From IMG/VR virus record IMGVR_UViG_2690316109_000015: DNA of 20,709 bases; one strand, given 5' to 3'. The stretch's first letter is position 1, and the number at the start of each line of letters is the position of its first letter. Source of the stretch: a virus. Taxonomy: Duplodnaviria > Heunggongvirae > Uroviricota > Caudoviricetes. Positions 3,418 through 17,677 of the stretch are shown here, piece by piece. The position numbers and the translations under genes are program-made. Under the pieces are notes generated by a model. It was not told the DNA's origin. It saw only the letters and a program-made list of their open reading frames with translations, and made no database searches.

Positions 3418-5679
3418 ATGATCAAGTTATCTGACAAAGGCGTGTTTCTCGCCAGTAATAACGAAATAATTGCTGAAGAACATTTCACCGGCGAAATTAA
3501 AAAAGAAGAAGCCAAAAAAGGCACTATTGCCTGGTCTATTCTCTCTTCGCATAATACGTCCGGAAATATGGATAAACTTAAAATTAAGTTTGATTCATTA
3601 GCCTCTCACGATATTACCTTTGTTGGTATTGTACAGACCGCTAAAGCGTCCGGTATGGAACGTTTCCCGCTGCCGTATGTGCTGACCAACTGCCATAACT
3701 CACTCTGCGCCGTCGGCGGCACCATTAACGGTGATGACCATGTTTTTGGTTTATCGGCAGCTCAGCGTTATGGCGGTATTTTTGTGCCTCCGCATATTGC
3801 GGTCATCCATCAATATATGCGTGAGATGATGGCAGGCGGCGGCAAAATGATCCTCGGGTCAGACAGCCACACCCGTTACGGTGCATTAGGGACAATGGCA
3901 GTCGGTGAGGGCGGTGGTGAGTTGGTAAAACAGCTGCTTAATGACACCTGGGATATCGACTATCCGGGAGTTGTTGCGGTGCATCTGACCGGAAAACCAG
4001 CGCCGTATGTGGGGCCGCAGGATGTGGCGCTGGCTATCATTGGCGCGGTGTTCAAAAACGGTTACGTCAAAAACAAAGTCATGGAGTTCGTTGGACCGGG
4101 CGTTAGCGCGCTCTCTACCGATTTCCGTAACAGCGTTGACGTGATGACCACGGAAACCACCTGTTTAAGCTCCGTCTGGCAAACTGATGAAGAAGTGCAT
4201 AACTGGCTGGCGCTGCACGGTCGCGGCCAGGATTACTGCCAGCTTAACCCTCAACCGATGGCGTACTACGATGGCTGCATCAGCGTTGATTTAAGCGCCA
4301 TCAAACCAATGATTGCGCTGCCGTTCCACCCGAGCAACGTGTATGAAATCGACACACTGAACCAGAACCTGACCGACATTCTGCGTGAGATTGAAATTGA
4401 GTCCGAACGCGTGGCGCACGGTAAAGCCAAACTCTCGCTGCTGGATAAAGTGGAAAATGGTCGCCTGAAAGTGCAGCAGGGGATTATCGCGGGCTGTTCT
4501 GGCGGTAACTACGAAAACGTCATCGCGGCGGCGAATGCACTGCGCGGTCAATCCTGTGGCAATGACACCTTCTCGCTGGCAGTTTACCCGTCATCACAGC
4601 CGGTGTTTATGGATCTCGCCAAAAAAGGTGTGGTAGCAGATTTGATTGGCGCAGGCGCAATCATCAGAACCGCGTTCTGCGGCCCATGCTTTGGCGCGGG
4701 CGATACGCCAATCAACAACGGTTTGAGTATTCGCCACACCACGCGTAACTTCCCGAACCGCGAAGGCTCTAAGCCAGCTAATGGGCAGATGTCAGCGGTG
4801 GCGTTGATGGACGCTCGTTCTATCGCTGCGACTGCGGCAAACGGTGGCTATTTAACCTCTGCCAGCGAACTTGATTGCTGGGACAACGTGCCGGAGTACG
4901 CCTTCGATGTAACGCCGTATAAAAACCGTGTTTATCAGGGCTTTGTGAAAGGGGCAACTCAGCAACCGCTGATTTACGGACCGAACATTAAAGACTGGCC
5001 GGAATTGGGTGCGCTGACTGACAATATCGTCCTGAAAGTGTGCTCGAAGATCCTCGACGAAGTGACCACCACCGACGAACTGATTCCTTCCGGTGAAACC
5101 TCTTCTTATCGTTCAAATCCGATTGGTCTGGCGGAGTTTACCCTGTCACGCCGCGATCCCGGTTATGTTGGCAGAAGTAAAGCGACTGCTGAGCTGGAAA
5201 ATCAGCGTCTGGCGGGGAATGTCAGCGAGCTGACAGAGGTGTTTGCGCGCATTAAGCAGATTGCTGGTCAGGAGCATATTGATCCGCTGCAAACTGAAAT
5301 TGGCAGCATGGTATATGCGGTGAAACCAGGCGATGGTTCTGCGCGTGAACAGGCGGCGAGCTGCCAGCGTGTGATTGGCGGTCTGGCGAATATTGCCGAA
5401 GAGTACGCGACTAAACGCTACCGTTCTAACGTCATCAACTGGGGGATGTTACCGCTGCAGATGGCGGAAGTGCCAACCTTTGAAGTGGGGGATTACATTT
5501 ACATCCCTGGCATTAAAGCGGCGCTGGATAATCCGGGTACGACGTTTAAAGGTTATGTGATCCATGAAGATGCGCCGGTAACGGAAATTACGCTCTATAT
5601 GGAAAGTCTGACTGCTGAAGAGCGCGAGATTATCAAGGCGGGTAGTTTGATTAACTTCAATAAAAACCGTCAGATGTAA
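3418..5679 (+). CDS. ybhJ: Aconitase-family protein (putative hydratase/dehydratase), 753 aa from ATG at 3418
   Basis: Aconitase-type motifs [14 protein letters not shown] and [10 protein letters not shown] (Cys ligands); the track ORF begins at GTG 3394, but ATG 3418 has GGAG at 6-nt spacing and gives 753 aa. Confidence 0.8.
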
Positions 5680-7330: not shown

Positions 7331-8401
7331 TTATTTGATTTCAATTTTGTCCCACTCCCTGCCTCTGTCATCACGATACTGTGATGCCATGGTGTCCGAC
7401 TTATGCCCGAGAAGATGTTGAGCAAATTTATCGCTTATCTGCTTCTCATAGAGTCTTGCAGACAAACTGCGCAACTCGTGAAAGGTTGGCGGATCCCCTT
7501 CGAAGGAGAGACCTGATGCTTTTCGTGCGCGCATAAAATACCTTGATACTGTGCCGGATGAAAGCGGTTCACGACGAGTAGATGCAATTATGGTTTCTCC
7601 GCCAAGAATCTTTTTGCATTTATCAAGTGTTTCCTTCATTGATATCCCGAGAGCATCAACATGCAATGTTGTTGGGATGGCAATTTTTACGCCTGTTTTG
7701 CTTTGCTCGACATAAAGATATCCATCTACGATATCAGACCACTTCATTTCGCATAAATCACCAACTCGCTGCCCGGTAACAACAGCCAGTTCCATTGCAA
7801 GTCTGAGCCAACATGGTGATGATTCTGCTGCTTGATAAATTTTCAGGTATTCGTCAGCCGTAAGTCTTGATCTCCTTACCTCTGATTTTGCAGCGCGAGT
7901 GGCTGCGACCGGGTTTGTTGTTATATGGCCTTCAGCTATAGCCTCTCGGAATGCATCGCTCAGTGTTGATCTGATTAACTTGGCTGATGCCGCCTTGCCC
8001 TCGTCTATGTATCCATTGAGCATTGCCGCAATTTCTTTTGTGGTGATGTCTTCAAGTGGAGCATCAGGCAGACCCCTCCTTATTGCTTTAATTTTGCTCA
8101 TGTAATTTATGAGTGTCTTCTGCTTGATTCCTCTGCTGGCCAGGATTTTTTCGTAGCGATCAAGCCATGAATGTAACGTAACGGAATTATCACTGTTGAT
8201 TCTCGCTGTCAGAGGCTTGTGTTTGTGTCCTGAAAATAACTCAATGTTGGCCTGTATGGCTTCAGTGATTGCGATTCGCCTGTCTCTGCCTAATCCAAAC
8301 TCTTTACCCGTCCTTGGGTCCCTGTAGCAGTAATATCCATTGTTTCTTATATAAAGGTTAGGGGGTAAATCCCGGCGCTCATGACTTCGCCTTCTTCCCA
8401 T
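7331..8401 (-). CDS. int: Tyrosine integrase, lambda Int (356 aa)
   Basis: 356 aa; sequence recognised as essentially lambda Int (MGRRRSHERRDLPPNLYIRNNGYYCYRDPRTGKEF... HELRSLSARLYEKQ... LLGHKSD...); adjacent to attL. Confidence 0.95.
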   Translation of the reverse strand: MGRRRSHERRDLPPNLYIRNNGYYCYRDPRTGKEFGLGRDRRIAITEAIQANIELFSGHKHKPLTARINSDNSVTLHSWLDRYEKILASRGIKQKTLINYMSKIKAIRRGLPDAPLEDITTKEIAAMLNGYIDEGKAASAKLIRSTLSDAFREAIAEGHITTNPVAATRAAKSEVRRSRLTADEYLKIYQAAESSPCWLRLAMELAVVTGQRVGDLCEMKWSDIVDGYLYVEQSKTGVKIAIPTTLHVDALGISMKETLDKCKKILGGETIIASTRREPLSSGTVSRYFMRARKASGLSFEGDPPTFHELRSLSARLYEKQISDKFAQHLLGHKSDTMASQYRDDRGREWDKIEIK

Positions 8402-8597
8402 TTCTGATCCTCTTCAAAAGGCTACCTGTTACTGGTCGATTTAAGTCAACCTTTACCGCTGATTCGTGGAACAGATACTCTCTTCCATCCTTAACCGGAG
8501 GAGGGAATATCCTGCACTCGCGTACCCATCGACGAACTGTTTCAAGGCTTCTTGGGCGTCGCTGGCGTGCGTTCCACTCCTGAAGTGTCAAGTACAT
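8379..8597 (-). CDS. xis: Excisionase, lambda Xis (72 aa)
   Basis: 72 aa MYLTLQEWNARQRRPRSLETVRRWVRECRIFPPPVKDGREYLFHESAVKVDLNRP...; overlaps int start as in lambda. Confidence 0.95.
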   Translation of the reverse strand: MYLTLQEWNARQRRPRSLETVRRWVRECRIFPPPVKDGREYLFHESAVKVDLNRPVTGSLLKRIRNGKKAKS

Positions 8598-8621
8598 CGC
8601 AAAGTCTCCGCAATTACACGC

Positions 8622-8644
8622 AAGAAAAAACCGCCATCAGGCGG
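8622..8644 (-). terminator. Putative rho-independent terminator-like hairpin upstream of xis
   Basis: Minus strand reads CCGCC-tgat-GGCGG followed by TTTTTTCTT; the stop codon of the 55-aa ORF lies inside the stem. Confidence 0.35.
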
Positions 8645-8804
8645 CTTGGTGTTCTTTCAGTTCTTCAATTCGAATATTGGTTACGTCTGCATGTGCTATC
8701 TGCGCCCACAGCATCCAGTGGTCATAGCAGTCGCTGATGTTCTCGGCTTCGATAACTCTGTTGAATGGTTCTCCATTCCATTCACCTGTGACTCGGAAGT
8801 GCAT
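8637..8804 (-). CDS. Small hypothetical protein (55 aa) of the lambda b region, immediately upstream of xis
   Basis: ATG at 8804 with GGAG at 7-nt spacing; translates to MHFRVTGEWNGEPFNRVIEAENISDCYDHWMLWAQIAHADVTNIRIEELKEHQAA; below the 61-aa track cutoff, found by manual translation. Confidence 0.5.
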   Translation of the reverse strand: MHFRVTGEWNGEPFNRVIEAENISDCYDHWMLWAQIAHADVTNIRIEELKEHQAA

Positions 8805-9118
8805 TTATCATCTCCATAAAACAAAACCCGCCGTAGCGAGTTCAGATAAAAGAAATCCTCGTCAGTGCGAGGATGCTGTTCATTGCTGCTATACACTTTT
8901 TTGCTCTCAACGTAAGCGGTAGCCCATTCTGTTGGGTTGGTGCAGTTGCTTTTAGGAAATGCTATTTACCCCTTAAATTTCGGCTGAAAGAGCTAAAATC
9001 CATGCAAAAAATTTACGCAATTTTGTGTATTATTGTGCAGTAAGTAATGAGCTATTTTCTGCGCAAAAAATGGATGGTAAATTTGTCCGGGTCAGGAAAA
9101 ATTTTATGGGCGCTAAAC

Positions 9119-9649
9119 ATGAAAAAAGATTCGTATCCTTATTTGATTTGCATGACAGTTTCAGGGCTGATCTTTATTTTCCTTTTCTTCTGGTGGCGGG
9201 CAGATATCTACAGGGTCACGTTTCTTAATCAGAGTATATCCCACTATTACATTCTGTTTAGCATGGGAATAGCTTTTCTGTTATCTCTGTTTTGGGTTAA
9301 GAAGGGGATAGTAAAACAAAGAGGCTGGAAGAGTCTGTCAGCATACCTTAAGGTTTATGCAGGGATGTGCATATTTGCTGGATTTTTTCTGATTATACCC
9401 CTTACGACACTAACTTATTTTTTGCCTGGAGAGACATCGTCTTATGTTGCACCGTATCGGTATACTTCCGGTAGTTCAAAAAGTTGTTCTGGAGCTGAGG
9501 TGGATGACCCCGATCTACATGAGAATATTCGCATTTGCTATCCGTATGGCAATTATGAGTACGATAATATTATCTATGTTGAAAAGAAAATTAATATATT
9601 AGGTGCGGTAGTGACATATGCACAGACCGCGCGTGATGATACTGAATGA
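9119..9649 (+). CDS. Small integral membrane protein (about 176 aa from MKK start; 200 aa if started at ATG 9047), moron-like cargo in b region
   Basis: Three hydrophobic helices (YPYLICMTVSGLIFIFLFFWW; ISHYYILFSMGIAFLLSLFWV; LKVYAGMCIFAGFFLIIPLTTLTYFL) plus a Cys-containing soluble C-terminal tail; AT-rich; opposite orientation to the flanking leftward operon; no strong SD for any candidate start. Confidence 0.5.
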   Translation: MKKDSYPYLICMTVSGLIFIFLFFWWRADIYRVTFLNQSISHYYILFSMGIAFLLSLFWVKKGIVKQRGWKSLSAYLKVYAGMCIFAGFFLIIPLTTLTYFLPGETSSYVAPYRYTSGSSKSCSGAEVDDPDLHENIRICYPYGNYEYDNIIYVEKKINILGAVVTYAQTARDDTE

Positions 9650-9683
9650 TATAGTATATAGCGGGCAAGTTTTAGTTAATTTA

Positions 9684-9721
9684 TCGAGGTAATATAATTT
9701 ACCTCGACTCGTTTGTTCTGG
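9684..9721 (+). terminator. Hairpin (9-bp perfect stem, 6-nt loop) downstream of the membrane-protein ORF
   Basis: tcgaggtaa-tataat-ttacctcga at 9684-9707 followed by ctcgtttgttctgg; lies 35 nt after the stop at 9647-9649. Confidence 0.4.
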
Positions 9722-9859
9722 TATTAATATTTCGCTTTACGACCGATTTTTATCTGATGATATCATGCGGTTTTCATATACTGACTTACTGTCTTTTCTC
9801 CGTTAGCGATTTTCTCCTGCTCAGCGATGATTTTATCTTTGGCTTCTAGTTAATTTCGC

Positions 9860-10081
9860 TCACTTCGAACCTCTCTGTTTACTGATAAGCTCCAGCTCCT
9901 CCTGGCAACTTGCACAAGTCCGACAACCCTGAACGACCAGGCGTCTTCGTTCATCTATCGGATCGCCACACTCACAACAATGAGTGGCAGATATAGCCTG
10001 GTGGTTCAGGCGGCGCATTTTTATTGCTGTGTTGCGCTGTAATTCTTCAATTTCTGATGCTGAATCAATGATGTCTGCCAT
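9860..10081 (-). CDS. TraR/DksA-family C4 zinc-finger protein (73 aa), lambda Orf73-like
   Basis: Cys pairs CCECGDPI ... CRTCASC typical of TraR/DksA C4 zinc fingers; position between b region and orf61/63/60a as in lambda. Confidence 0.75.
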   Translation of the reverse strand: MADIIDSASEIEELQRNTAIKMRRLNHQAISATHCCECGDPIDERRRLVVQGCRTCASCQEELELISKQRGSK

Positions 10082-10179
10082 CTTCCATTAATCCCTGAAT
10101 TGTTGGTTAATACGCTTGAGGGTGAATGCGAATAATAAAAAAGGAGCCTGTAGCTCCCTGATGATTTTGCTTTTCATGT

Positions 10180-10491
10180 TCATCGTTCCTTAAAGACGCC
10201 GTTTAACATGCCGATTGCCAGGCTTAAATGAGTCGGTGTGAATCCCATCAGCGTTACCGTTTCGCGGTGCTTCTTCAGTACGCTACGGCAAATGTCATCG
10301 ACGTTTTTATCCGGAAACTGCTGTCTGGCTTTTTTGATTTCAGAATTAGCCTGACGGGCAATGCTGCGAAGGGCGTTTTCCTGCTGAGGTGTCATTGAAC
10401 AAGTCCCATGTCGGCAAGCATAAGCACACAGAATATGAAGCCCGCTGCCAGAAAAATGCATTCCGTGGTTGTCATACCTGGTCTCTCTCAT
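10180..10491 (-). CDS. Hypothetical protein, lambda orf61-region (start uncertain; alternative ATG at 10395 gives 71 aa)
   Basis: ORF with ATG at 10489-10491; C-terminal part MTPQQENALRSIARQANSEIKKARQQFPDKNVDD... looks protein-like, N-terminal part less so. Confidence 0.4.
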   Translation of the reverse strand: MRETRYDNHGMHFSGSGLHILCAYACRHGTCSMTPQQENALRSIARQANSEIKKARQQFPDKNVDDICRSVLKKHRETVTLMGFTPTHLSLAIGMLNGVFKER

Positions 10492-10663
10492 CTGCTTCTG
10501 CTTTCGCCACCATCATTTCCAGCTTTTGTGAAAGGGATGCGGCTAACGTATGAAATTCTTCGTCTGTTTCTACTGGTATTGGCACAAACCTGACTCCAAT
10601 TTGAGCGAGGCTATGTGCCATCTCGATACTCGTTCTTAACTCAACGGGAGATGCTTTGTGCAT
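10472..10663 (-). CDS. Hypothetical protein, lambda orf63-like (63 aa)
   Basis: ATG at 10661-10663; sits in the conserved position upstream of exo in the leftward operon. Confidence 0.55.
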   Translation of the reverse strand: MHKASPVELRTSIEMAHSLAQIGVRFVPIPVETDEEFHTLAASLSQKLEMMVAKAEADERDQV

Positions 10664-10818
10664 ACAGCTCCCCGTTTATTATTTATCTCCTCAGCCAGCC
10701 GCTGTGCTTTCAGGGGATTTCGGATAACAGAAAGGCCGGGAAATACCCAGCCTCGCTTCGTAACGGAGTAGACGAAAGTGATCGTGCCTACGCGGATATT
10801 ATCGTGAGGATGTTTCAT
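10636..10818 (-). CDS. Hypothetical protein, lambda orf60a-like (60 aa from second ATG)
   Basis: ATG at 10816-10818 has GGGGAG at 8-nt spacing; the first ATG (10824) has SD too close; overlaps the exo stop. Confidence 0.5.
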
Positions 10819-11495
10819 CGCCATTGCTCCCCAAATACAAAACCAATTTCAGCCAGTGCCTCGTCCATTTTTTCGATGAACTCCGGCACCATCTCGTCAA
10901 AACTCGCTATATACTTTTCATTCCGCTCAATCACGACATAATGCAGGCCTTCACGCTTCATGCGCGGGTCATAGTTGGCAAAGTACCAGGCATCTTTTCG
11001 CGTCACCCACATGCTGTACTGCACCTGGGCCATGTAAGCCGATTTTATTGCCTCGAAACCACCGAGCCGGAATTTCATGAAATCCCGGGAGGTAAACGGG
11101 CATTTCAGTTCAAGGCCGTTGCCGTCACTGCATAAACCATCGGGAGAGCAGGCGGTGCGCATATTTTCGTCGCGATAGATGATCGGGGATTCAGTAATAT
11201 TCACGCCGGAAGTGAATTCAAACAGGGTTCTGGCGTCGTTCTCGTACTGTTTTCCCCAGGCCAGCGCCTTAGCATTAACTTCCGGAGCCACACCGGTGCA
11301 AACCTCAGCCAGCAGGGTGTGGAAGTAGGACATTTTCATGTCAGGCCACTTCTTTCCTGAGCGGGGCTTTGCTATCACGTTGTGAACTTCTGAAGCGGTG
11401 ATGACGCCGAGCCGTAATTTGTGCCATGCATCATCCCCCTGTTCGACAGCTCTCACGTCGATCCCGGTACGCTGCAGGATAATGTCCGGTGTCAT
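10815..11495 (-). CDS. exo: Lambda Red exonuclease Exo (226 aa)
   Basis: 226 aa, [62 protein letters not shown]...; recognised as lambda Exo; start overlaps the bet stop. Confidence 0.95.
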
Positions 11496-12277
11496 GCTGC
11501 CACCTTCTGCTCAGTGGCTTTCTGTTTCAGGAATCCAAGAGCTTTCACTGCTTCGGCCTGTGTCAGTTCTGACGATGCGCGAATGTCGCGGCGAAATATC
11601 TGGGAACAGAGCGGCAATAAGTCGTCATCCCATGTTTTATCCAGGGCGATCAGCAGAGTGTTAATCTCCTGCATGGTTTCATCGTTAACCGGAGTGATGT
11701 CGCGTTCCGGCTGACGTTCTGCAGTGTATGCGGTATTTTCGACAATGCGCTCGGCTTCATCCTTGTCATAGATACCAGCAAATCCGAAGGCGAGACGGGC
11801 ACACTGAATCATGGCTTTATGCCGTAACATCCGTTTGGGATGCGACTGCCACGGCCCCGTGATTTCTCTGCCTTCGCGAGTTTTGAATGGTTCGCGGCGG
11901 CATTCATCCATCCATTCGGTAACGCAGATCGGATGATTACGGTCCTTGCGGTAAATCCGGCATGTACAGGATTCATTGTCCTGCTCAAAGTCCATGCCAT
12001 CAAACTGCTGGTTTTCATTGATGATGCGGGACCAGCCATCAACGCCCACCACCGGAACGATGCCGTTCTGCTTATCAGGGAAGGCGTAAATTTCTTTCGT
12101 CCACGGATTAAGGCCGTACTGGTTGGCGACGATCAACAATGCGATGAACTGCGCATCGCTGGCATCACCTTTAAATGCCGTCTGGCGAAGAGTGGTGATC
12201 AGTTCCTGTGGGTCGACAGAATCCATGCCGACACGTTCAGCCAGCTTCCCAGCCAGCGTTGCGAGTGCTGTACTCAT
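11492..12277 (-). CDS. bet: Lambda Red single-strand annealing protein Beta (261 aa)
   Basis: 261 aa, [66 protein letters not shown]...; recognised as lambda Bet. Confidence 0.95.
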
Positions 12278-12282
12278 CCGTT

Positions 12283-12579
12283 TTATACCTCTGAATCAAT
12301 ATCAACCTGGTGGTGAGCAATGGTTTCAACCATGTACCGGATGTGTTCTGCCATGCGCTCCTGAAACTCAACATCGTCATCAAACGCACGGGTAATGGCT
12401 TTTTTGCTGGCCCCGTGGCGTTGCAAATGATCGATGCATAGCGATTCAAACAGGTGCTGGGGCAGACCTTTTTCCATGTCGTCTGCCAGTTCTGCCTCTT
12501 TCTCTTCACGGGCGATCTGCTGGTAGTGACGCGCCCAGCTCTGAGCCTCAAGACGATCCTGAATGTAATAAGCGTTCAT
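12283..12579 (-). CDS. gam: Lambda Gam, RecBCD inhibitor, short (GamS-type, 98 aa) form
   Basis: [60 protein letters not shown]...; AGGAG 6 nt upstream of ATG at 12579. Confidence 0.9.
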
Positions 12580-12655
12580 GGCTGAACTCCTGAAAATGGC
12601 TGTGAAAATATCGCCCGCGAAATGCCAGGCTGATTAGGAAAACAGGAAAGGGGGG

Positions 12656-12862
12656 TTAGTGATTCAGGCCGTTACCGCGTCCGTCGAGAAAAACTTCTAC
12701 GAGCAAATCACGGGTATAAGTGCGCTCGATGCCGCGATGCAGATAAAGCCGTCCGCGTAAATTAGCTGATGCAGTCCAGGTACCATCTTTGTGTTTGACC
12801 AGCATTCCTGGCATGACCGCGCCGCGATTAACGGTCTGTGTTCCGTAATGTTGATGAACCAT
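12656..12862 (-). CDS. Small protein (68 aa) in the kil position upstream of gam
   Basis: ATG at 12860-12862 with AGGAG at 5-nt spacing; MVHQHYGTQTVNRGAVMPGMLVKHKDGTWTASANLRGRLYLHRGIERTYTRDLLVEVFLDGRGNGLNH; assignment is by position only. Confidence 0.4.
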   Translation of the reverse strand: MVHQHYGTQTVNRGAVMPGMLVKHKDGTWTASANLRGRLYLHRGIERTYTRDLLVEVFLDGRGNGLNH

Positions 12863-13129
12863 AAAAACTCCTGCCCGTAAGCTGGGCTGCTGAACATATA
12901 GAGACTTCTGCGCGTATTCAGGCGGTGGATGGCCGCCGGTTGTCATAACTAAGCCGCCTCGTTGAAGCGACTGAGGTATGAAATGTTGAGTTAATTTCAG
13001 CTGGTCACACCGACGTTCACGCGTCCGTTTCACCCCTCGCACTCCCCGAAGCCTGCTGAAATTCAAACTGCGGATCTAAGCGGTCATCGCAACGGTGAAT
13101 CAGGTGGTTGCCGTATCGTTGTGTTGTTG

Positions 13130-13190
13130 CGATATGGTGATAATAGCTATTGCTATTGGTGATATCAATACTTATTGCTATTGACTGATG
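13130..13190 (-). promoter_or_regulatory. Candidate leftward early promoter (pL-like) with two operator dyads (oL)
   Basis: Minus-strand -35 TTGATA (plus-strand 13163-13168), 17-bp spacer, -10 TATTAT (13140-13145). Two 16-bp dyads AATAGC-N4-GCTATT at 13142-13157 and (one mismatch) 13167-13182; the same motif recurs at oR. Confidence 0.5.
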
Positions 13191-13308
13191 TGTTTTGATA
13201 TTAAATGTTTGATAGCAAAAAGAATTAATTTTGTGACTTGCATCGCATAGCGATAACTGAAGCAGGGATGTGGTGGTTTTTTGAGCGGTGTGTGATGAGG
13301 GGAGGGGA

Positions 13309-13336
13309 CAAAAGAAAACCCGGCACGGTGGCCGGG
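13309..13336 (-). terminator. Rho-independent terminator ending the repressor/cargo operon (tImm-like)
   Basis: Minus strand CCCGGC-caccgt-GCCGGG followed by TTTTCTTTTG, starting 26 nt after the TAG stop (13363-13365) of the 268-aa gene. Confidence 0.65.
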
Positions 13337-13362
13337 TTATTAATTAAATTAGTCAGTTTTTT

Positions 13363-14169
13363 CTACTGTAACATAGAGGCAGCATTCAGCATCTTTTCGT
13401 AATATGAACGCATGTCTTCTTTGCTATATGCGTTGATAAGATTATCAGCGTGTTTTTCCAGTAGATTTAGCTGCTGTTTTGCTGACTTTTCTTGTGCTGT
13501 CGTTTCAGCGGCAAAAATTACAAATGAATCAATATTTGAATTGTATAATTCGTAGGCTTTAGTAATTGTTAAAACACTTATCGCAGCTTCACCCATTTGT
13601 TTTTTTATATTTTCAGAACGAAAATCTAATGTTTCTGTAAGATGGTATTTGCCATTTTTTAACAAAAAATCTGCAACTAACCCTTCTTCATTACTAATTG
13701 GATAATTAGCTACGATTTTATGTTGGGAAAGATCTTCAAAATACTTACTGAAAATTCCATGTTGTATAAAGGTGGATTTTAATTCAGAAAAAACCTTTTT
13801 TTTCAACTGTTTATGTGGCTGTTTTTGTGGGTTTACTAACCGATTCATTAGATCAGTAACTTTAGCTTCGTAATCTTCGTTGGCTTGAAGAGTGAACATG
13901 CCAAATGACGATAACGATAATGCTCCCTTAAAAAGACAAGGAAGAAGTTCAGCATTGTTGATTTTTTGTGACAAATCAAAAAGCGAGGTCGAAAGATCCT
14001 CTAAGTAATCTAAGGTAAGATCTTTGTCAATCGCTTTAAGTTTTGAAACTGAATTGAGCATACGTACGTCTATGTCAGAGTCATGGTAAACGATCAAACC
14101 AACGTTAATCGTTTCACCTTTCTCTAAGTTCGGTGTAACTCTGATTAAGCTGTATTTGAAAGTTTTCAA
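13363..14169 (-). CDS. Hypothetical protein (268 aa), second gene of the rex-position cargo operon; no recognisable catalytic motif
   Basis: TTG start whose first two bases overlap the upstream TGA stop (TCTTGAAAA), GGAG 8 nt upstream; AT-rich; N-terminus MKTFKYSLIRVTPNLEKGETINVGLIVYHDSD; C-terminal third predicted helical. Confidence 0.7.
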   Translation of the reverse strand: MKTFKYSLIRVTPNLEKGETINVGLIVYHDSDIDVRMLNSVSKLKAIDKDLTLDYLEDLSTSLFDLSQKINNAELLPCLFKGALSLSSFGMFTLQANEDYEAKVTDLMNRLVNPQKQPHKQLKKKVFSELKSTFIQHGIFSKYFEDLSQHKIVANYPISNEEGLVADFLLKNGKYHLTETLDFRSENIKKQMGEAAISVLTITKAYELYNSNIDSFVIFAAETTAQEKSAKQQLNLLEKHADNLINAYSKEDMRSYYEKMLNAASMLQ

Positions 14170-15014
14170 GATGTTATCTCCAGTCTTATGGCATTTAGCC
14201 TATCGATTCGCTCCTCGCTGTCCCACCACTTCAAAAAATACTCCTTATGCATTGGTGGCATCCATGCTTCAGGCATAGAGTTAAGTATATCAGATATAGC
14301 CTCAACTCCAATTTTTTCAATTTTGTCAAGGACAGATAATGCGCACTTTCTCAGATCATCAGTGTCGCCAATGAATTGTTTAGCAATCGTCCAGTTTGTT
14401 GTTGTACTGGAGTCTGTTGGTAGTATATGAGGGGTATTTCGTGGCCAGCCTATAACAAAAGAGCTTAGACTAAAATCGAATGTTTTAACTATAACATTGC
14501 CTCGGGTGTTTTCCATGTATAAGTAGTTGTTGAGGTGTCTGTCAATGTTATATACAAACTGATCAAATGCATAAATTGCCCAGAGTTGCTTCTTTAAGGA
14601 TTCAGAAGCATTTGAGAGCAAATTTATCCATTGAGGACTATTGAGACCAGATTTCCAGGCTGAAAACTCTATGCGAGAGCCAAAAACATACTCCCCATTA
14701 GCAATACACTTGAGAATTTTGCACACAGGTGTAGCGATGCCGCATTTTTCAGCTAAATTTGTGCAAAACCATTCCGCTGCCGGTACTTGAGTTGGGTTTT
14801 GTACAGGAAAAGGTGGGGTGGAGCGCATGCTTTTAACTGCATATTCCATTTCATCAGTGGCAATAGCGAAACCAGAAAGGTGTGCTGTGCCTAAGCTTGA
14901 AGGTGTATATTCATGAAATTCTAATTCAAACAAACTTCCTTGCTCTGGTTTCACTTCATCAGTGTTTGACTCTTGTTCTTTCGTCATCAACTTTTTTCCC
15001 CAAATCGAAGACAT
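14166..15014 (-). CDS. Kinase-like protein (282 aa) with HipA/PI3K-type catalytic-loop signature; first gene of the rex-position cargo operon
   Basis: ATG at 15014 with AGAGG at 5-nt spacing, 46 nt downstream of the cI-like stop; motif NIDRHLNN (D-R-H-x-x-N) followed about 20 residues later by KTFDFS (DFG-like); AT-rich. Confidence 0.7.
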   Translation of the reverse strand: MSSIWGKKLMTKEQESNTDEVKPEQGSLFELEFHEYTPSSLGTAHLSGFAIATDEMEYAVKSMRSTPPFPVQNPTQVPAAEWFCTNLAEKCGIATPVCKILKCIANGEYVFGSRIEFSAWKSGLNSPQWINLLSNASESLKKQLWAIYAFDQFVYNIDRHLNNYLYMENTRGNVIVKTFDFSLSSFVIGWPRNTPHILPTDSSTTTNWTIAKQFIGDTDDLRKCALSVLDKIEKIGVEAISDILNSMPEAWMPPMHKEYFLKWWDSEERIDRLNAIRLEITS

Positions 15015-15060
15015 GCGGACCTCTTAAATTTGAACAACATCATAATGATTAGCTAATCCG

Positions 15061-15753
15061 CTACCCATGCTTCCTATACGTCTGCGGCATGCTCCCAATA
15101 ACCTTACCGAAGATGAACACCCGGTTCATCTCGTCTTTCTCGATCGGGTCCCACGGTGAGTAGCTCTTGTTATCAGAGATAACCAGCAGCTTATCCTTCA
15201 TCATTTGCAGACGCTTTACATGGGCTGTGTCGTCGTACAGAAACGCATAGATACCATCACCGTCGAAAGATTTAACCGTGATATCAACGAACAGCAGATC
15301 ACCTGGTTCGATCGTTCCTGACATGCTGTCACCACGCACGTTAATGATGCGGATATTTTCCGCCTTCCTGCCATCGAACATGTGACGAGCATCGTCAAAC
15401 GAGTACTCAACCGAGCGTAGAACTTCTACAAACTCACGGTTGATTACACCCGGCCCGGCACTGACTTCTATATCAAGAACGTCAATTTTGAAGTATTTGG
15501 AATGGCTGACAGCAGGCTTCCCTGATTGTTGACCGTCATTTCTCATCGGGCCTATGCCTGATGAGAGCCATTCTGTTCGAACACCCAATGCATTAGCTAT
15601 TTCAACAATTTTTGTTGAGCCGCGCGCGTTGCCGCTTGTCAGTCTCCAGATTGTGGGTTGAGCTACGCCAGACGCCTTTGCAAGAGCGCCTTGAGACATT
15701 CCAGATTGTTCCATCGCTAGGTTTAAGCGATCAGCAAGAGTTTCTTTTTTCAT
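15061..15753 (-). CDS. CI-like prophage repressor: N-terminal XRE-type HTH, C-terminal S24 (LexA-like) autopeptidase; about 230 aa from ATG 15753
   Basis: HTH MSQGALAKASGVAQPTIWRL; S24 catalytic Ser in VRGDSMSGTIEPGDLLFVD and Lys in AHVKRL; candidate Ala-Gly cleavage site (SAGPG). The track ORF starts at TTG 15789; ATG 15753 has no SD and abuts the -10 element, suggesting a leaderless transcript as for lambda cI from pRM. Not lambda cI. Confidence 0.85.
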   Translation of the reverse strand: MKKETLADRLNLAMEQSGMSQGALAKASGVAQPTIWRLTSGNARGSTKIVEIANALGVRTEWLSSGIGPMRNDGQQSGKPAVSHSKYFKIDVLDIEVSAGPGVINREFVEVLRSVEYSFDDARHMFDGRKAENIRIINVRGDSMSGTIEPGDLLFVDITVKSFDGDGIYAFLYDDTAHVKRLQMMKDKLLVISDNKSYSPWDPIEKDEMNRVFIFGKVIGSMPQTYRKHG

Positions 15754-15863
15754 AAGTTTTAATTTATACGCTTGCGTATTGATGGTCAAAACACGTTTTG
15801 CTATTGCTTGGATTAATACGCATTGCTATTATTCATTCATTGCAATACCAATAGGAATTGATA
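15754..15863. promoter_or_regulatory. Immunity switch region: divergent pRM-like and pR-like promoters with operator dyads (oR)
   Basis: Minus strand: -35 TTGACC (plus 15784-15789), then TATAAA/TAAATT ending about 7 nt before the cI-like ATG. Plus strand: -35 TTGCTT (15804-15809), 17-bp spacer, -10 TATTAT (15827-15832). Dyads: ATACGCTTGCGTAT (15766-15779) and AATACGCATTGCTATT (15815-15830). Confidence 0.55.
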
Positions 15864-16091
15864 ATGACAAATCAAACCATTCAACTCGCAATCAGTATTA
15901 CAGGTAGTCAAAAACGACTGGCAGATCTATGCGGTGTAGCCCAACCCACTGTTTGGCGTTGGCTACACGGTGGCGGAATTGATGCCCGCTATGTAATGAA
16001 AATTGTCTCAGCCACTGGTGGAAAGATTAAACCAGCAGATATTCGTCCCGACCTCGCACCATTGTTTAACGCGAGTAATTCTGCCGCCTAA
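15864..16091 (+). CDS. Cro-like small HTH regulator (75 aa from ATG 15864)
   Basis: Position immediately rightward of the repressor; HTH-like segment QKRLADLCGVAQPTVWRWLHGG; AGGA at 7-nt spacing. The track ORF begins at TTG 15858. Confidence 0.7.
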   Translation: MTNQTIQLAISITGSQKRLADLCGVAQPTVWRWLHGGGIDARYVMKIVSATGGKIKPADIRPDLAPLFNASNSAA

Positions 16092-16115
16092 ACTGCGGCG
16101 TTAACTGATAAGGCA

Positions 16116-16661
16116 ATGACTATGCAACCACTTACATACCAACAGACTAGCGGATTTATCCCGACTGCGGTGATAAATCGTTCTCAAATAAAACAGGTGC
16201 CAGGCCACGAAAAAATCCGTGATGCCATCCGCGCCTGGTCGGCTGTAGATAATCAGGATGTCGTTGCCGCACTCATTGTGAATGAGTATCGAGCACAGGG
16301 CGGCGGCACTATCGATTTTTCTGATGATGTCAGTCGTGCACGCCAGAAGCTGTTCCGCTTTCTCGATAACAAATTCGATTCTGAAAAATACCGAAATAAC
16401 GTGCGTGAACTGACTCCAGCAATTCTGGCAGTACTACCGCTGAAATATCGCGGCCACCTGGTTGAGCAGGATAGCTTCATGGCTCGGCTGGCTGAAATGG
16501 AAAAGGAACTCAGTGAGGCAAAACAGGCTGTCATTCTCAACGCACCACGCCACCAGAAACTGAAGGAGATGAGTGAAGGCATTGTGTCGATGTTTCGTGT
16601 GGACCCGGATTTGGCTGGTCCACTGATGGCGATGGTCACCACCATGCTGGGGGCAATATGA
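16116..16661 (+). CDS. CII-position regulator, YdaT-like (181 aa)
   Basis: Occupies the cII position between cro-like and O; segments EYRAQGGG and LTPAILAVLP resemble what I recall of Rac-prophage YdaT. Confidence 0.5.
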   Translation: MTMQPLTYQQTSGFIPTAVINRSQIKQVPGHEKIRDAIRAWSAVDNQDVVAALIVNEYRAQGGGTIDFSDDVSRARQKLFRFLDNKFDSEKYRNNVRELTPAILAVLPLKYRGHLVEQDSFMARLAEMEKELSEAKQAVILNAPRHQKLKEMSEGIVSMFRVDPDLAGPLMAMVTTMLGAI

Positions 16662-16747
16662 CAGGTTCAGAAATGGCGAAAGCCGGTCTGCGCGAACAGA
16701 ACCGACTTTCAGGTGCAAATCGTAACACACTCATTGCGGGAGGAATT

Positions 16748-17677
16748 ATGGCAAACACTGCTGAGATATTCAATTTTCCAGTGCCGGATGTGGCACAAAA
16801 GGAGCCGCGCGTGGCAGATCTCGATGATGGTTATACGCGCATTGCAAATGAGTTGCTGGAAGCTGTGATGCTGGCCGGATTAACACAGCACCAGCTTCTG
16901 GTCTTCCTGGCTGTCATGCGCAAAACATATGGCTTTAATAAAAAACTGGATTGGGTGAGCAACGAGCAACTTTCCGAATTGACCGGGATATTGCCGCACA
17001 AGTGTTCTGCTGCAAAAAGCGTTCTGGTAAAGCGTGGGATTCTTATTCAGAGCGGGCGGAATATCGGCATTAATAATGTGGTCAGTGAATGGTCAACATT
17101 ACCCGAATCAGGTAAGAAAAATAAAGTTTACCTGAAAGAGGTAAATTTACCTGAATCAGGTAAGAAAAGTTTACCCAAATCAGGTAAAGGCGTTTACCCG
17201 AATCAGGTAAACACAAAAGACAAACTAACAAAAGACAATATAAAACCTTTTTCGTCCGAGAATTCTGGCGAATCCTCTGACCAACCAGAAAACGATCTTC
17301 CTGTGGAGAAACCAGATGCTGCAATTCAGAGCGGCAGCAGGTGGGGGACAGCAGAAGACCTGACCGCCGCAGAGTGGATGTTTGACATGGTGAAGACCAT
17401 CGCGCCATCAGCCAGAAAACCGAATTTTGCAGGGTGGGCTAACGATATCCGCCTGATGCGTGAACGTGACGGACGTAACCACCGCGACATGTGCATGCTG
17501 TTCCGCTGGGCATGCCAGGACAACTTTTGGTCTGGTAACGTGCTGAGCCCGGCCAAACTTCGCGACAAGTGGACCCAACTCGAAATCAACCGTAACAAAC
17601 AACAGGCTGGCGTGACAGCCGGAAAACCAAAACTCGACCTGACAAACACAGACTGGATTTACGGGGTGGATCTATGA
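16748..17677 (+). CDS. O: Replication initiator O, hybrid: non-lambda N-terminal (origin-binding) half, lambda-like C-terminal half (309 aa from ATG 16748)
   Basis: Start MANTAEIFNF...VADLDDGY parallels lambda O MTNTAKILNF...VADLDDGY; GGAGG upstream; C-terminal part (SSENSGESSDQPEND ... LDLTNTDWIYGVDL) recognised as lambda O; iterons lie inside the gene. An in-frame upstream ATG at 16658 overlaps the previous stop (ATGA). Confidence 0.85.
   Translation: MANTAEIFNFPVPDVAQKEPRVADLDDGYTRIANELLEAVMLAGLTQHQLLVFLAVMRKTYGFNKKLDWVSNEQLSELTGILPHKCSAAKSVLVKRGILIQSGRNIGINNVVSEWSTLPESGKKNKVYLKEVNLPESGKKSLPKSGKGVYPNQVNTKDKLTKDNIKPFSSENSGESSDQPENDLPVEKPDAAIQSGSRWGTAEDLTAAEWMFDMVKTIAPSARKPNFAGWANDIRLMRERDGRNHRDMCMLFRWACQDNFWSGNVLSPAKLRDKWTQLEINRNKQQAGVTAGKPKLDLTNTDWIYGVDL
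17098..17210. repeat. Replication origin iterons: five copies of an 18-bp dyad TTTACC(C/T)(G/A)AATCAGGTAA, followed by an AT-rich stretch
   Basis: Copies at about 17099-17115, 17127-17144 (degenerate), 17146-17163, 17170-17187 and 17193-17210, each with TTACC/GGTAA dyad symmetry; AT-rich 17211-17255. Same architecture as lambda ori inside O but a different iteron sequence. Confidence 0.75.

Follow-up and report, generated by a model that had tools for sequence, protein, structure and literature searches.

The region between the leftward early promoter and gam was analyzed in a 20,709-nucleotide (nt) stretch of viral DNA, IMG/VR record IMGVR_UViG_2690316109_000015, the whole of which is called the window here. 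The window contains an N-less lambdoid prophage, which belongs to the 4A7/Bievrevirus type, has a right-hand immunity region of the YdaS/YdaT type and transcribes its early-left operon on the minus strand. An earlier note on this DNA had drawn attention to an arginine-rich open frame in the region and had proposed that it encodes a divergent N-like antiterminator or, alternatively, that the phage antiterminates without N, for example through a cis-acting RNA. The 'N-like' frame is an artifact of reading noncoding RNA as protein, and the small open reading frame (ORF) that follows it is an ordinary KilR homolog, kil, the sole gene between pL and gam. The explanation that accounts best for the region as a whole, with a probability of roughly 0.7, is that of an N-less pL leader in which the arginine-rich frame is open by chance, kil is the only gene and a conserved RNA cassette acts in cis. 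The early-left (pL) transcript would thus start with an untranslated leader, nucleotides 13133-12863 of the minus strand, made up of a lineage-specific part of ~145 nt, which shows no sign of coding or structure, and then the conserved cassette of ~125 nt. RNA polymerase would reach kil, gam, bet and exo without an antitermination device, the N step having been dispensed with and not replaced.

The pL-like sigma-70 promoter (13140-13168, minus strand) has the -35 element TTGATA at 13168-13163 and the -10 element TATTAT at 13145-13140, separated by a 17-nt spacer. With 10 of 12 matches to the consensus, it is the top promoter-like site within 8300-16200. Operator-like direct and inverted repeats with a ATTGCTAT-type motif overlap the promoter, namely AATAGCTATTGCTATTG at 13142-13158 and AATACTTATTGCTATTG at 13167-13183, and the same motif is found on the pR side as TTGCTATTGC at 15798-15807. 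Among 80 related contigs the immunity haplotypes switch exactly 270-360 nt upstream of kil, which would place the start of the common transcript near 13133. The -10 element is ~278 nt from the ATG of kil (12862) and ~561 nt from the ATG of gam (12579). The interval is therefore as compact as the earlier note had stated, except that its figure of about 470 base pairs (bp) for the distance from pL to gam extends to the stop codon of the small ORF. The reported lack of N, cIII, ral and sieB was borne out, because searches of the pL-gam interval against Pfam, NCBIfam and PHROGs detected no homolog of any of them. Overall, the sequence-level statements of that note were confirmed, with small corrections.

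The arginine-rich frame opens with a TTG at 13066, comprises 136 codons including RLRGVRGVKRTRERR, and continues without a stop and in frame into the 68-residue small ORF, just as had been described. Its upstream 68 codons (12863-13066, minus strand) are a chance open frame across noncoding RNA and not a gene. The decisive comparison was made among 80 viral contigs that encode an identical Kil, in which the 273 nt upstream of the gene occur as 64 unique sequences; the upstream stretch had not been used in selecting the contigs and hence provides a fair test of coding. Single-nucleotide indels shift the frame in two of these sequences (a deletion at 13063 in L003 and an insertion at 13037 in L007), and four more (L014, L021, L031 and L052) carry a 5-nt TCAAC insertion near 12995. 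In 17 of the 64, a C-to-T change at 12973 introduces an in-frame TAG, although Kil is 100% identical. The 27 variable sites of the frame are distributed 11/8/8 over the three codon positions, compared to 9/7/35 for the differences between kil and its HK225 allele. In the isolated phages Turner and PhiR30_1 the tblastn match of the frame breaks into two pieces. Thus the comparative alignment that had been suggested as a check shows a frame that is open by chance. The TCAAC polymorphism at ~12995 is a tandem duplication just upstream of the cassette.

The arginine-rich part has neither an ATG nor a properly spaced Shine-Dalgarno sequence; the purine-rich motifs GGGGA/GAGG lie merely 0-2 nt upstream of the candidate TTG and GTG starts, and the one in-frame ATG upstream of 12862 is at 12946. 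The 128 nt directly before kil (12863-12990) are present in 2322 of 5426 complete Escherichia coli genomes, and the Prokaryotic Genome Annotation Pipeline (PGAP) has placed no annotation over them in any listed record from the matching genomes. A profile search of the 136-residue frame, another check that had been suggested, returned nothing N-like from Pfam, NCBIfam or PHROGs. The N families PF11438, PF25694 and phrog_271 gave no match to residues 1-68 at E values up to 10, whereas the lambda N control was found at 2.5e-26 (PF11438) and 9e-24 (phrog_271). The sole family match of the frame is marginal (phrog_25330, E = 0.024). Since the N protein of phage phi80 does not match any annotated N family either, the profile result is weak when taken alone, and it is the comparative result that decides.

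A divergent N-like antiterminator would be either a separate protein with a GTG or TTG start or an N-terminal extension of the small ORF, binding a nut-like hairpin in the leader. Its appeal comes from the 136 open codons with the segment KRTRERR, reminiscent of the arginine-rich motif TRRRERR of lambda N, from the 5-bp hairpin that follows this segment (hairpin 2, described below), and from the great diversity of N proteins, which makes a missing profile match weak evidence. However, the frameshifting indels and the TAG occur in natural relatives with an unchanged Kil, the substitutions have no codon-position bias, and the candidate starts have their purine-rich motifs too close. The TAG allele leaves at most ~31 residues, without the NusA- and RNA polymerase-binding parts that lambda N requires. 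Furthermore, the arginine-rich stretch is confined to one lineage, whereas the hairpins downstream of it are common to phages that have their own N or put, and there is no terminator between pL and the recombination genes to be overcome. An N-like protein is accordingly regarded as extremely improbable. The resemblance to the N/nut systems of lambda, phi80 (N) and P22 (gp24) is limited to the position, the first transcribed segment after pL, and to an arginine-rich stretch in one frame with a 5-bp GC hairpin downstream. Unlike these systems, the window has no constrained gene at this place, no N-family match, no convincing boxA and no terminator before the recombination genes. In phi80 the cassette comes after N and the terminator tL1A and not at nutL, and the only strong hairpins of the window's leader are those of the cassette, which is common to phages with their own nutL elsewhere.

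The first gene of the pL operon, kil (12862-12656, minus strand, stop codon 12658-12656), encodes a 68-residue KilR-family (Rac-type) cell-division inhibitor. The earlier note had correctly placed the small ORF in the kil position. The protein aligns over residues 1-68 with positions 13-80 of the 83 in phrog_294, 'Kil protein for bacterial septation inhibition' (1.3e-37), and it matches NF008465, 'FtsZ inhibitor protein' of the KilR family, at 1.8e-17 (residues 1-68 onto 1-70 of 73). The NF008465 score of 63.1 bits is below the curated NCBI cut-off of 92 bits, which makes the protein a relative of KilR, not an equivalog. The Shine-Dalgarno sequence AGGAG (12872-12868) is located 5 nt ahead of the ATG, as the earlier note had seen; the gene does not strictly abut gam, however, because 76 nt separate the two. 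The gene is annotated as Kil, with 207 nt, in both 4A7 and HK225. The HK225 allele is ~75% identical, and 59 of the 69 aligned positions of the product (68 residues and the stop) are the same. The equivalent methionine is the start in the Kil homologs of phi80, HK639, CobraSix, S9-5 and KO-TP1 and in Rac KilR, with which the protein has the HxxGT, PG and SA motifs in common. The full-length match, the signature of purifying selection and the conserved start codon support membership in the KilR family, whereas inhibition of division through FtsZ would follow from family membership only (for KilR see PMC5793797, PMC12482147). A poly-C length polymorphism is found directly after the kil stop (12655) in most relatives.

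The 3' part of the leader is occupied by a conserved noncoding RNA cassette (12986-12863, ~125 nt), which lies inside the supposed N-like frame. In the order of transcription it consists of hairpin 1, hairpin 2, a linker and a small hairpin 3 beside the Shine-Dalgarno sequence. A 63-nt block of the cassette (12983-12920) is 97% identical to HK225, compared to ~75% for the adjoining kil. A pattern scan of viral contigs found 198 instances with 82 distinct cores. The cassette sequence is absent from Rfam 15, and neither the sequence of hairpin 2 nor the peptide MTTGGHPPP that could be read from the ATG at 12946 was found in the searchable literature. Model R2, a covariance model covering hairpins 1 and 2, detects a single copy in the window, with a score of 91.6 bits in the sense orientation as against 22.7 bits for the antisense strand.

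Hairpin 1 (12943-12981, minus strand) has 16 bp, made up of a UCAUA/UAUGA base, 2 bp, and a 9-bp upper stem AGUCGCUUC/GAGGCGGCU with the loop AAC. The AUG at 12946-12944 is paired with its CAU partner in the base of the hairpin. The fold is far more stable than expected by chance (z = -3.98, none of 200 shuffles being as stable), and hairpins 1 and 2 fold jointly with z = -4.43. In 37 distinct sequences pairing is kept in 97% of the hairpin 1 helix cells and in 97.6% over the two-helix structure, compared to 30-50% when the partners are slid. Seven pairs of hairpin 1 are changed on both sides, giving 79 covarying cells, whereas shuffles give 23 +/- 3.5 (0 of 500 reach the observed number) and the slid-partner controls at most 20. 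The two sides of the upper stem vary freely but together, in forms such as CAGUCGC/GCGGCUU, CAGCAAC/GUUGCUU, GAGUCAU/GUGGCUC, GGCAGA/UCUGCC, AAACGGG/CCUGUUU and AGCUCA/UGAGCU, and its G-U pairs are compatible with the pL-sense strand only.

Hairpin 2 (12921-12937, minus strand) is a 5-bp stem with a 7-nt loop, GGCGG / CCAUCCA / CCGCC, and is nearly invariant; for this reason no covariation is available for it among the 37 sequences. Its consensus is GGCGG / CYAUCCA / CCGCC, placed 3-6 nt past the AUG, and the window has an exact match at 12937-12921, its only occurrence (0.04 expected). The linker, or block B, GCGCAGAAGUCU...GUUCAGCAG (12887-12913, minus strand), aligns across the cassette variants. 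Among phages the linker nucleotides are read in all three frames (..ISAEVLY, ..AQKSLY, ..HKRRSLV), which indicates that the nucleotides are conserved and not a peptide. Hairpin 3 (12887-12873, minus strand), GCCC/AGCUUAC/GGGC, is a tentative minimum free energy prediction that the AGGAG of kil adjoins. The corresponding segment exists in three sequence variants, each with a short hairpin beside the Shine-Dalgarno sequence of the following gene.

The paired AUG raises the question of whether the cassette is instead a translational control on a short upstream ORF (AUG 12946, MTTGGHPPP...) the start of which is masked by hairpin 1. Opening of the hairpin would then permit translation through hairpin 2, possibly with a stall at Pro-Pro-Pro, and load ribosomes onto the first delayed-early gene or unmask it; in the window's lineage the ORF is fused in frame to kil and would yield a 96-residue isoform. 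There is a prophage precedent in the IsrK-orf45-anrP leader of Gifsy-1, where a terminator is followed by a structured leader that masks the start of a short ORF, and where read-through transcripts are controlled at the RNA level through the masked upstream ORF and translational coupling (PMC4825925). All 37 aligned cassettes keep the AUG and its CAU partner unchanged, with a GAG motif 12 nt ahead of the AUG; most copies agree in their first nine codons, and S9-5 preserves the frame via a 3-nt deletion. Nevertheless, one sequence (L248) has GAUA/UAUC in place of CAUA/UAUG, so that the start codon has become AUC and a compensating C-to-G change in the partner retains the pairing. Changes of 1-3 nt in the spacing between the AUG and hairpin 2 alter the peptide and leave the stem and loop intact. 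The altered peptides are MKLAAIHRP in CobraSix and MRRRPSTA in L215, where shifts of 1-2 nt make them unrelated, and MNGGYPPL in S9-5. Beyond its ninth codon the ORF has a tail of anything between 16 and 226 codons, the three-frame reading of the linker does not suit a peptide, and in lambda the AUG meets a stop after 3 codons. Furthermore, 12 nt is a long distance between the GAG and the AUG, both hairpins would occlude initiation, and the ORF is out of frame in L129 despite the same kil. Upstream-ORF control is therefore judged improbable, and the 96-residue Kil isoform was rejected because the in-frame fusion is lineage-specific and is lost in L129, L147 and L096. The IsrK leader, which has no homology to the cassette (the 17.6-bit Rfam isrK match derives from the terminator alone) and belongs to a late-region locus, is kept as a mechanistic analog only; its upstream ORF is required (PMC4825925), whereas here the peptide, and even the AUG, is dispensable in some copies.

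The cassette is a conserved RNA structure that normally stands right after the first pL terminator. It is present in phi80, where it starts at the last bases of the annotated tL1A, just after N, and in HK639, just after a terminator and ~1.1 kilobases downstream of the annotated putL-like RNA. It is also found in HK225 and in phages of Enterobacter, Klebsiella and Salmonella, and the exact core of hairpin 2 occurs in prophages of Citrobacter, Enterobacter, Scandinavium and Huaxiibacter (representative genomes). The cassette was found in 105 distinct contexts, 26 of them within the window's lineage and 79 outside it. In 71 of the 79 outside contexts a canonical intrinsic terminator ends within a few bases of the sequence CAUACC; three others have an imperfect terminator and two lie directly behind a put-like RNA. 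A terminator directly upstream of CAUACC is absent from the window and from all 26 contexts of its lineage, which makes the arrangement in the window a variant. The genes flanking the cassette are highly diverse, and the fact that at least a dozen unrelated first genes follow it means that it is not specific to kil. Two contigs have a put-like RNA, ~20 nt and then the cassette, with no gene or terminator between (L097 6176-6300 and L100 8421-8542); their layout is that of the window, where an unrelated 145-nt leader replaces put.

The first half of the cassette has homologs in lambda and HK022. With the filters off, model R2 also picks up lower-scoring relatives of hairpin 1, at 21.1 bits in HK022 and at 14.5 bits in lambda. 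In the lambda ea10-cIII spacer, the terminator GCCGCCUGAGUGCGGUUUU is followed by ACCG, CAUACC, a hairpin with a UUCAC..GAG loop, a U-run and the ribosome-binding site of cIII. HK022-type phages have the corresponding hairpin directly downstream of a terminator-like U-run, ahead of the cIII homolog. The positions of terminator, CATACC and hairpin before cIII are 2476-2545 of the lambda sequence L310 (NC_001416; ~33475-33545 in the record) and 4441-4494 of HK022 (L086). The lambda ea10-cIII and phi80 tL1A loci have the same order of terminator, CAUACC, hairpin (loop UUCAC..GAG, CAUA/UAUG base) and ribosome-binding site of the next gene, and in phi80 the whole cassette follows tL1A. Lambda and HK022, however, lack hairpin 2 and the linker, and score far below the window's 91.6 bits. 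Their hairpin keeps the U-run and resembles a second, tandem terminator, whereas in most other phages, including the window, stem-extending bases replace the U-run. A further difference is that a terminator precedes the element in lambda and phi80 but not in the window's lineage. The ea10-cIII region presumably lies within the interval of the lambda tL2 terminator cluster, the location of which was reportedly given by Luk and Szybalski in 1983. A placement of tL2a at 33494 was contradicted and dropped. The lambda small RNA (sRNA) PreS at tL2a was considered as a counterpart of the cassette and rejected, being a different element located between ral and ea10 and not at the ea10-cIII hairpin (bioRxiv 10.1101/2024.10.31.621285).

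In phi80 (N-dependent), HK639-like phages (put-carrying) and HK225 the cassette directly follows the pL operon's first intrinsic terminator and directly precedes the first delayed-early gene. In the window's lineage the early gene block and the terminator are absent, and pL would read straight into the cassette. The cassette may be a relative of the tandem hairpins in lambdoid tL terminator clusters, the U-tract of which has decayed in most phages, and may now act on pausing, on processing or stability of the transcript, or on ribosome loading before the first delayed-early gene. The least certain part of this explanation is that the cassette would be a cis-acting element of the mRNA recognized as RNA, and not a peptide-coding upstream ORF. 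That it is a previously undescribed, host-factor-recognized regulatory motif of lambdoid early-left operons is a tentative proposal, given somewhat less than an even chance. If true, one motif would stand at the immediate-early/delayed-early boundary in N-type, put-type and N-less phages of Escherichia, Salmonella, Klebsiella, Enterobacter and Citrobacter, controlling the fate of transcripts that have passed the first terminator, and its 5' part would be present in lambda itself.

A rival reading makes the cassette a transcription attenuator, composed of back-up intrinsic terminators, pause sites or part of a Rho-dependent stop, which silences kil and the delayed-early genes unless the polymerase is modified or transcription is very active. 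The lambda and HK022 homologs of hairpin 1 do have a U-run, GCGUUUUUCGUU, right behind another terminator in a tandem-like arrangement. The depositors of HK639 annotated hairpin 2 with a downstream U-run as a terminator, and phi80 has an annotated Rho-dependent terminator, tL1B, ~120 nt farther on. Rac kilR is silenced by Rho/NusG (PMC5793797), and C exceeds G over 12993-12953 of the window (C/G ratio 1.3-1.7). On the other hand, the tails of hairpin 1 (UAGUUAUG) and hairpin 2 (UGAAUACG) contain no usable U-tract, and the terminator scan calls neither. The conserved loops and linker are unneeded by a terminator, an efficient stop would block the whole recombination module in an N-less phage, and the C/G ratio does not amount to a strong or convincing rut-like composition of the leader. 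An attenuator is thus unlikely, if less so than upstream-ORF control. In order of preference, the cassette is considered to be a terminator-cluster relative acting on pausing, processing or ribosome loading, an attenuator, and an IsrK-orf45-type device that couples an upstream ORF to the next gene.

The 5' part of the leader (12987-13133, minus strand) is noncoding and holds the arginine-rich segment of the TTG frame. Matches to it, with 95-99% identity, were confined to 16 records of E. coli phages that are close relatives, among them 4A7, Perceval and the PhiR phages, and its first ~35 nt differ by immunity type. The RNA structure prediction that the earlier note had recommended gave a divided answer: the 5' leader (13133-12987) folds like shuffled sequence (z = +0.34, with 124 of 200 shuffles at least as stable), and the conserved structure is all in the cassette farther 3'. 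Rfam contains no family matching the leader or the cassette, as judged by E value over 12000-17000 of the window and over the phi80, HK639 and CobraSix loci; weak matches to isrJ, isrK, Trp_leader and OrzO-P were in every case due to terminator hairpins and were discarded. There is no convincing boxA-like CGCUCUU(U)A in the leader, the nearest sequence being CGCUUAGA at ~13081 (5 of 8 by eye), which agrees with the earlier failure to find clear boxA/boxB nut candidates. A U-A to C-G co-variation between 13049 and 13028 was rejected as haplotype linkage and not a helix, the neighboring bases being unable to pair. An AACGAT hexamer resembling a -10 element at about +17 was also rejected; such hexamers are too frequent by chance, and this one is in a nonconserved part of the leader.

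N-less lambdoid phages such as HK022 (putL/putR) and HK639 (putL-like RNA) have a cis-acting antiterminator RNA directly after pL, and many put phages carry the same downstream cassette as the window. Put RNA of the HK022 type suppresses terminators farther along in cis, by way of the beta' zinc-binding domain. The put core, a two-stem RNA with GAACGGCGCG..AAACCAUGCGUCGG..GGCGGG..CGGCAAU, is, however, unmatched in the window, and the leader is unrelated to put. HK022 putL and the annotated HK639 putL-like RNA served as references and were supplemented by put-like sequences that carry the core AAACCATGCGTCGG, collected from viral contigs. The covariance model built from 25 of these aligned put-like sequences (model R1, 18 bp) was run over the whole window on both strands with the filters off. 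Its best hit (7.2 bits, E = 1.1) falls inside the cI-like repressor at 15657-15701, and there is nothing in 12863-13135. A blastn-short search of put against the window found chance 9-11-mers only, among them TGCGAGGGG, common to the HK639 putL annotation, a 9-mer outside the put core with E = 7.3. The annotated HK639 putL-like RNA itself (L083, 1344-1469) has no Rfam 15 match even at E values up to 5, and put RNAs seem to have no Rfam family. Thus the known antitermination devices, N-type and put-type, are absent from the window, since neither shows its defining features there. The suggestion of an N-independent, cis-acting RNA antiterminator finds no support in its known form. An RNA element does overlap the 3' part of the frame, but its usual position behind a terminator is unfit for an antiterminator.

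A new kind of put-like antiterminator would still be conceivable, formed by the lineage-specific leader (13133-12987) alone or together with the cassette and serving to carry polymerase past distal terminators to xis and int. The leader begins at the promoter, as putL does, and is replaced by a put-like RNA at exactly this place, ~20 nt before the cassette, in L097 and L100. Its 110 nt from 13099 to 12990 are 95-99% identical across different immunity types, and terminator-like sites do exist farther along the operon. However, such identity is expected among close relatives even without selection, the covariance model does not match, the folding is that of shuffled sequence, and natural 1-nt and 5-nt indels are tolerated. 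Elsewhere, moreover, the cassette follows a terminator and so stands on the wrong side for antiterminating it. Position is the one point that speaks for a put-like role of this leader, which is the less likely reading and, in our estimate, a very improbable one.

The distribution of terminators explains why no such device may be needed over the first part of the operon. Between pL and kil the terminator scan scored nothing terminator-like. Up to the 3' end of exo (10815) it has just two candidates, both weak: a hairpin of 5 bp between kil and gam (12630-12613, minus strand) and one of 6 bp inside bet (12159-12141, minus strand). Consequently kil, gam, bet and exo probably need no antitermination; with the early gene block and its terminator lacking, none would be required up to exo. 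Beyond exo there is a weak-tailed hairpin (10754-10732, minus strand), and the first strong terminator candidate is at 10159-10141 on the same strand. Further terminator-like hairpins are at 8843-8824 and 8647-8628 (minus strand), ahead of xis and int. Together with the one at 10159-10141 they lie inside the distal early-left operon, before a DksA-like gene, xis and int. Terminator-like sites are enriched overall, 18 being found where 8.7 +/- 3.3 are expected. On the opposite arm, the YdaT-type 'cII-like' gene (16116-16661, plus strand) overlaps the O-like replication gene (16658-17677, plus strand) by 4 nt and begins 24 nt after the end of cro. At this spacing neither a nutR/putR-type site nor a tR1-type terminator would fit into the early-right operon, which is consistent with a phage that has no early antitermination on either arm. 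The annotation of relatives includes a Q-like late antiterminator and no N.

Several observations weigh against the preferred explanation of an N-less leader with a cis-acting cassette. The transcription start, the transcript ends and the lack of Rho-dependent termination in the 270-nt leader are all deduced from sequence. The distal hairpins at 10159-10141, 8843-8824 and 8647-8628 leave room for a read-through device serving the distal operon, and the leader sits exactly where put sits in L097 and L100, its 95-99% identity providing too little variation for a covariation test. The invariant hairpin 2 loop, CAUACC, UUCA..GAG and ACAACC exceed what a decayed terminator needs and imply a specific partner, common to enterobacterial hosts. 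Finally, the AUG of hairpin 1 is nearly invariant and is here in frame with kil, with a possible 96-residue product, so that some translation may occur.

The closest functional parallel is the kilR region of the Rac prophage (E. coli K-12, b1352). The 68-residue ORF of the window aligns with KilR from the first residue, leftward early transcription in each case passes through a long untranslated leader before it meets this gene, the first toxic one, and YdaS/YdaT-type immunity genes adjoin in both. The two leaders, however, have no detectable sequence similarity. That of Rac includes the sRNA KilS, which is bound by Hfq and has a terminator of its own, and kilR is followed by ydaE-racC-recET and not by gam-bet-exo. 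The Rac leader, with KilS and with Rho/NusG silencing, is therefore analogous in logic and unrelated in sequence. A segment of the phi80 cassette, ACAACCGG..hairpin..CCATTNAAA, matches Rac (L309, 1982-2011, plus strand) opposite KilS, upstream of kilR, with E = 0.14. The match is marginal and on the opposite strand, and was judged to be probably due to chance.

Lambdoid phages without N were already known, and an N-less pL leader joined to a KilR gene is ordinary for lambdoid mosaics. Nevertheless, a very common type of E. coli prophage appears to run kil-gam-bet-exo without any early antitermination step, which is relevant to how firmly lysogens silence a toxic inhibitor of division. The comparison also brought to light the RNA cassette, which is supported by covariation, marks the post-terminator boundary in the pL operons of many lambdoid phages and has its 5' part before lambda cIII. 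If the cassette is a regulatory RNA, the best-studied phage family would have a layer of early-gene control that is widely shared and can be tested.

Among sequenced phages, the E. coli phages 4A7 (Bievrevirus), Lambda_4C10, Perceval, Turner and the PhiR series come closest to the window, with 90-96% identity over 12580-13360. The host-nuclease inhibitor gene gam (12283-12579, minus strand; PF06064 Gam, 3.4e-65) opens the recombination module and is followed by bet (11492-12277) and exo (10815-11495), with xis and int farther along the operon. To the right of the immunity region are genes for a YdaS-type Cro, a YdaT-type 'cII-like' protein, O and P. A strong terminator at 13338-13317 closes the repressor-side operon just upstream of the pL-like promoter. 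Between this terminator and the cI-like S24 repressor (15061-15789) are two accessory genes, at 14166-15014 and 13363-14169. They occupy the rex position (13363-15014, minus strand) and encode a HipA-like kinase (PF20613/PF07804) and a DUF3037 protein. The pair has weak PADLOC matches to components of the candidate defense system PDC-M66 (component B, 2.6e-8; component A, 1.6e-3). In phage 4A7 this slot is filled by a different pair, a hypothetical protein and an ASCH-domain protein.

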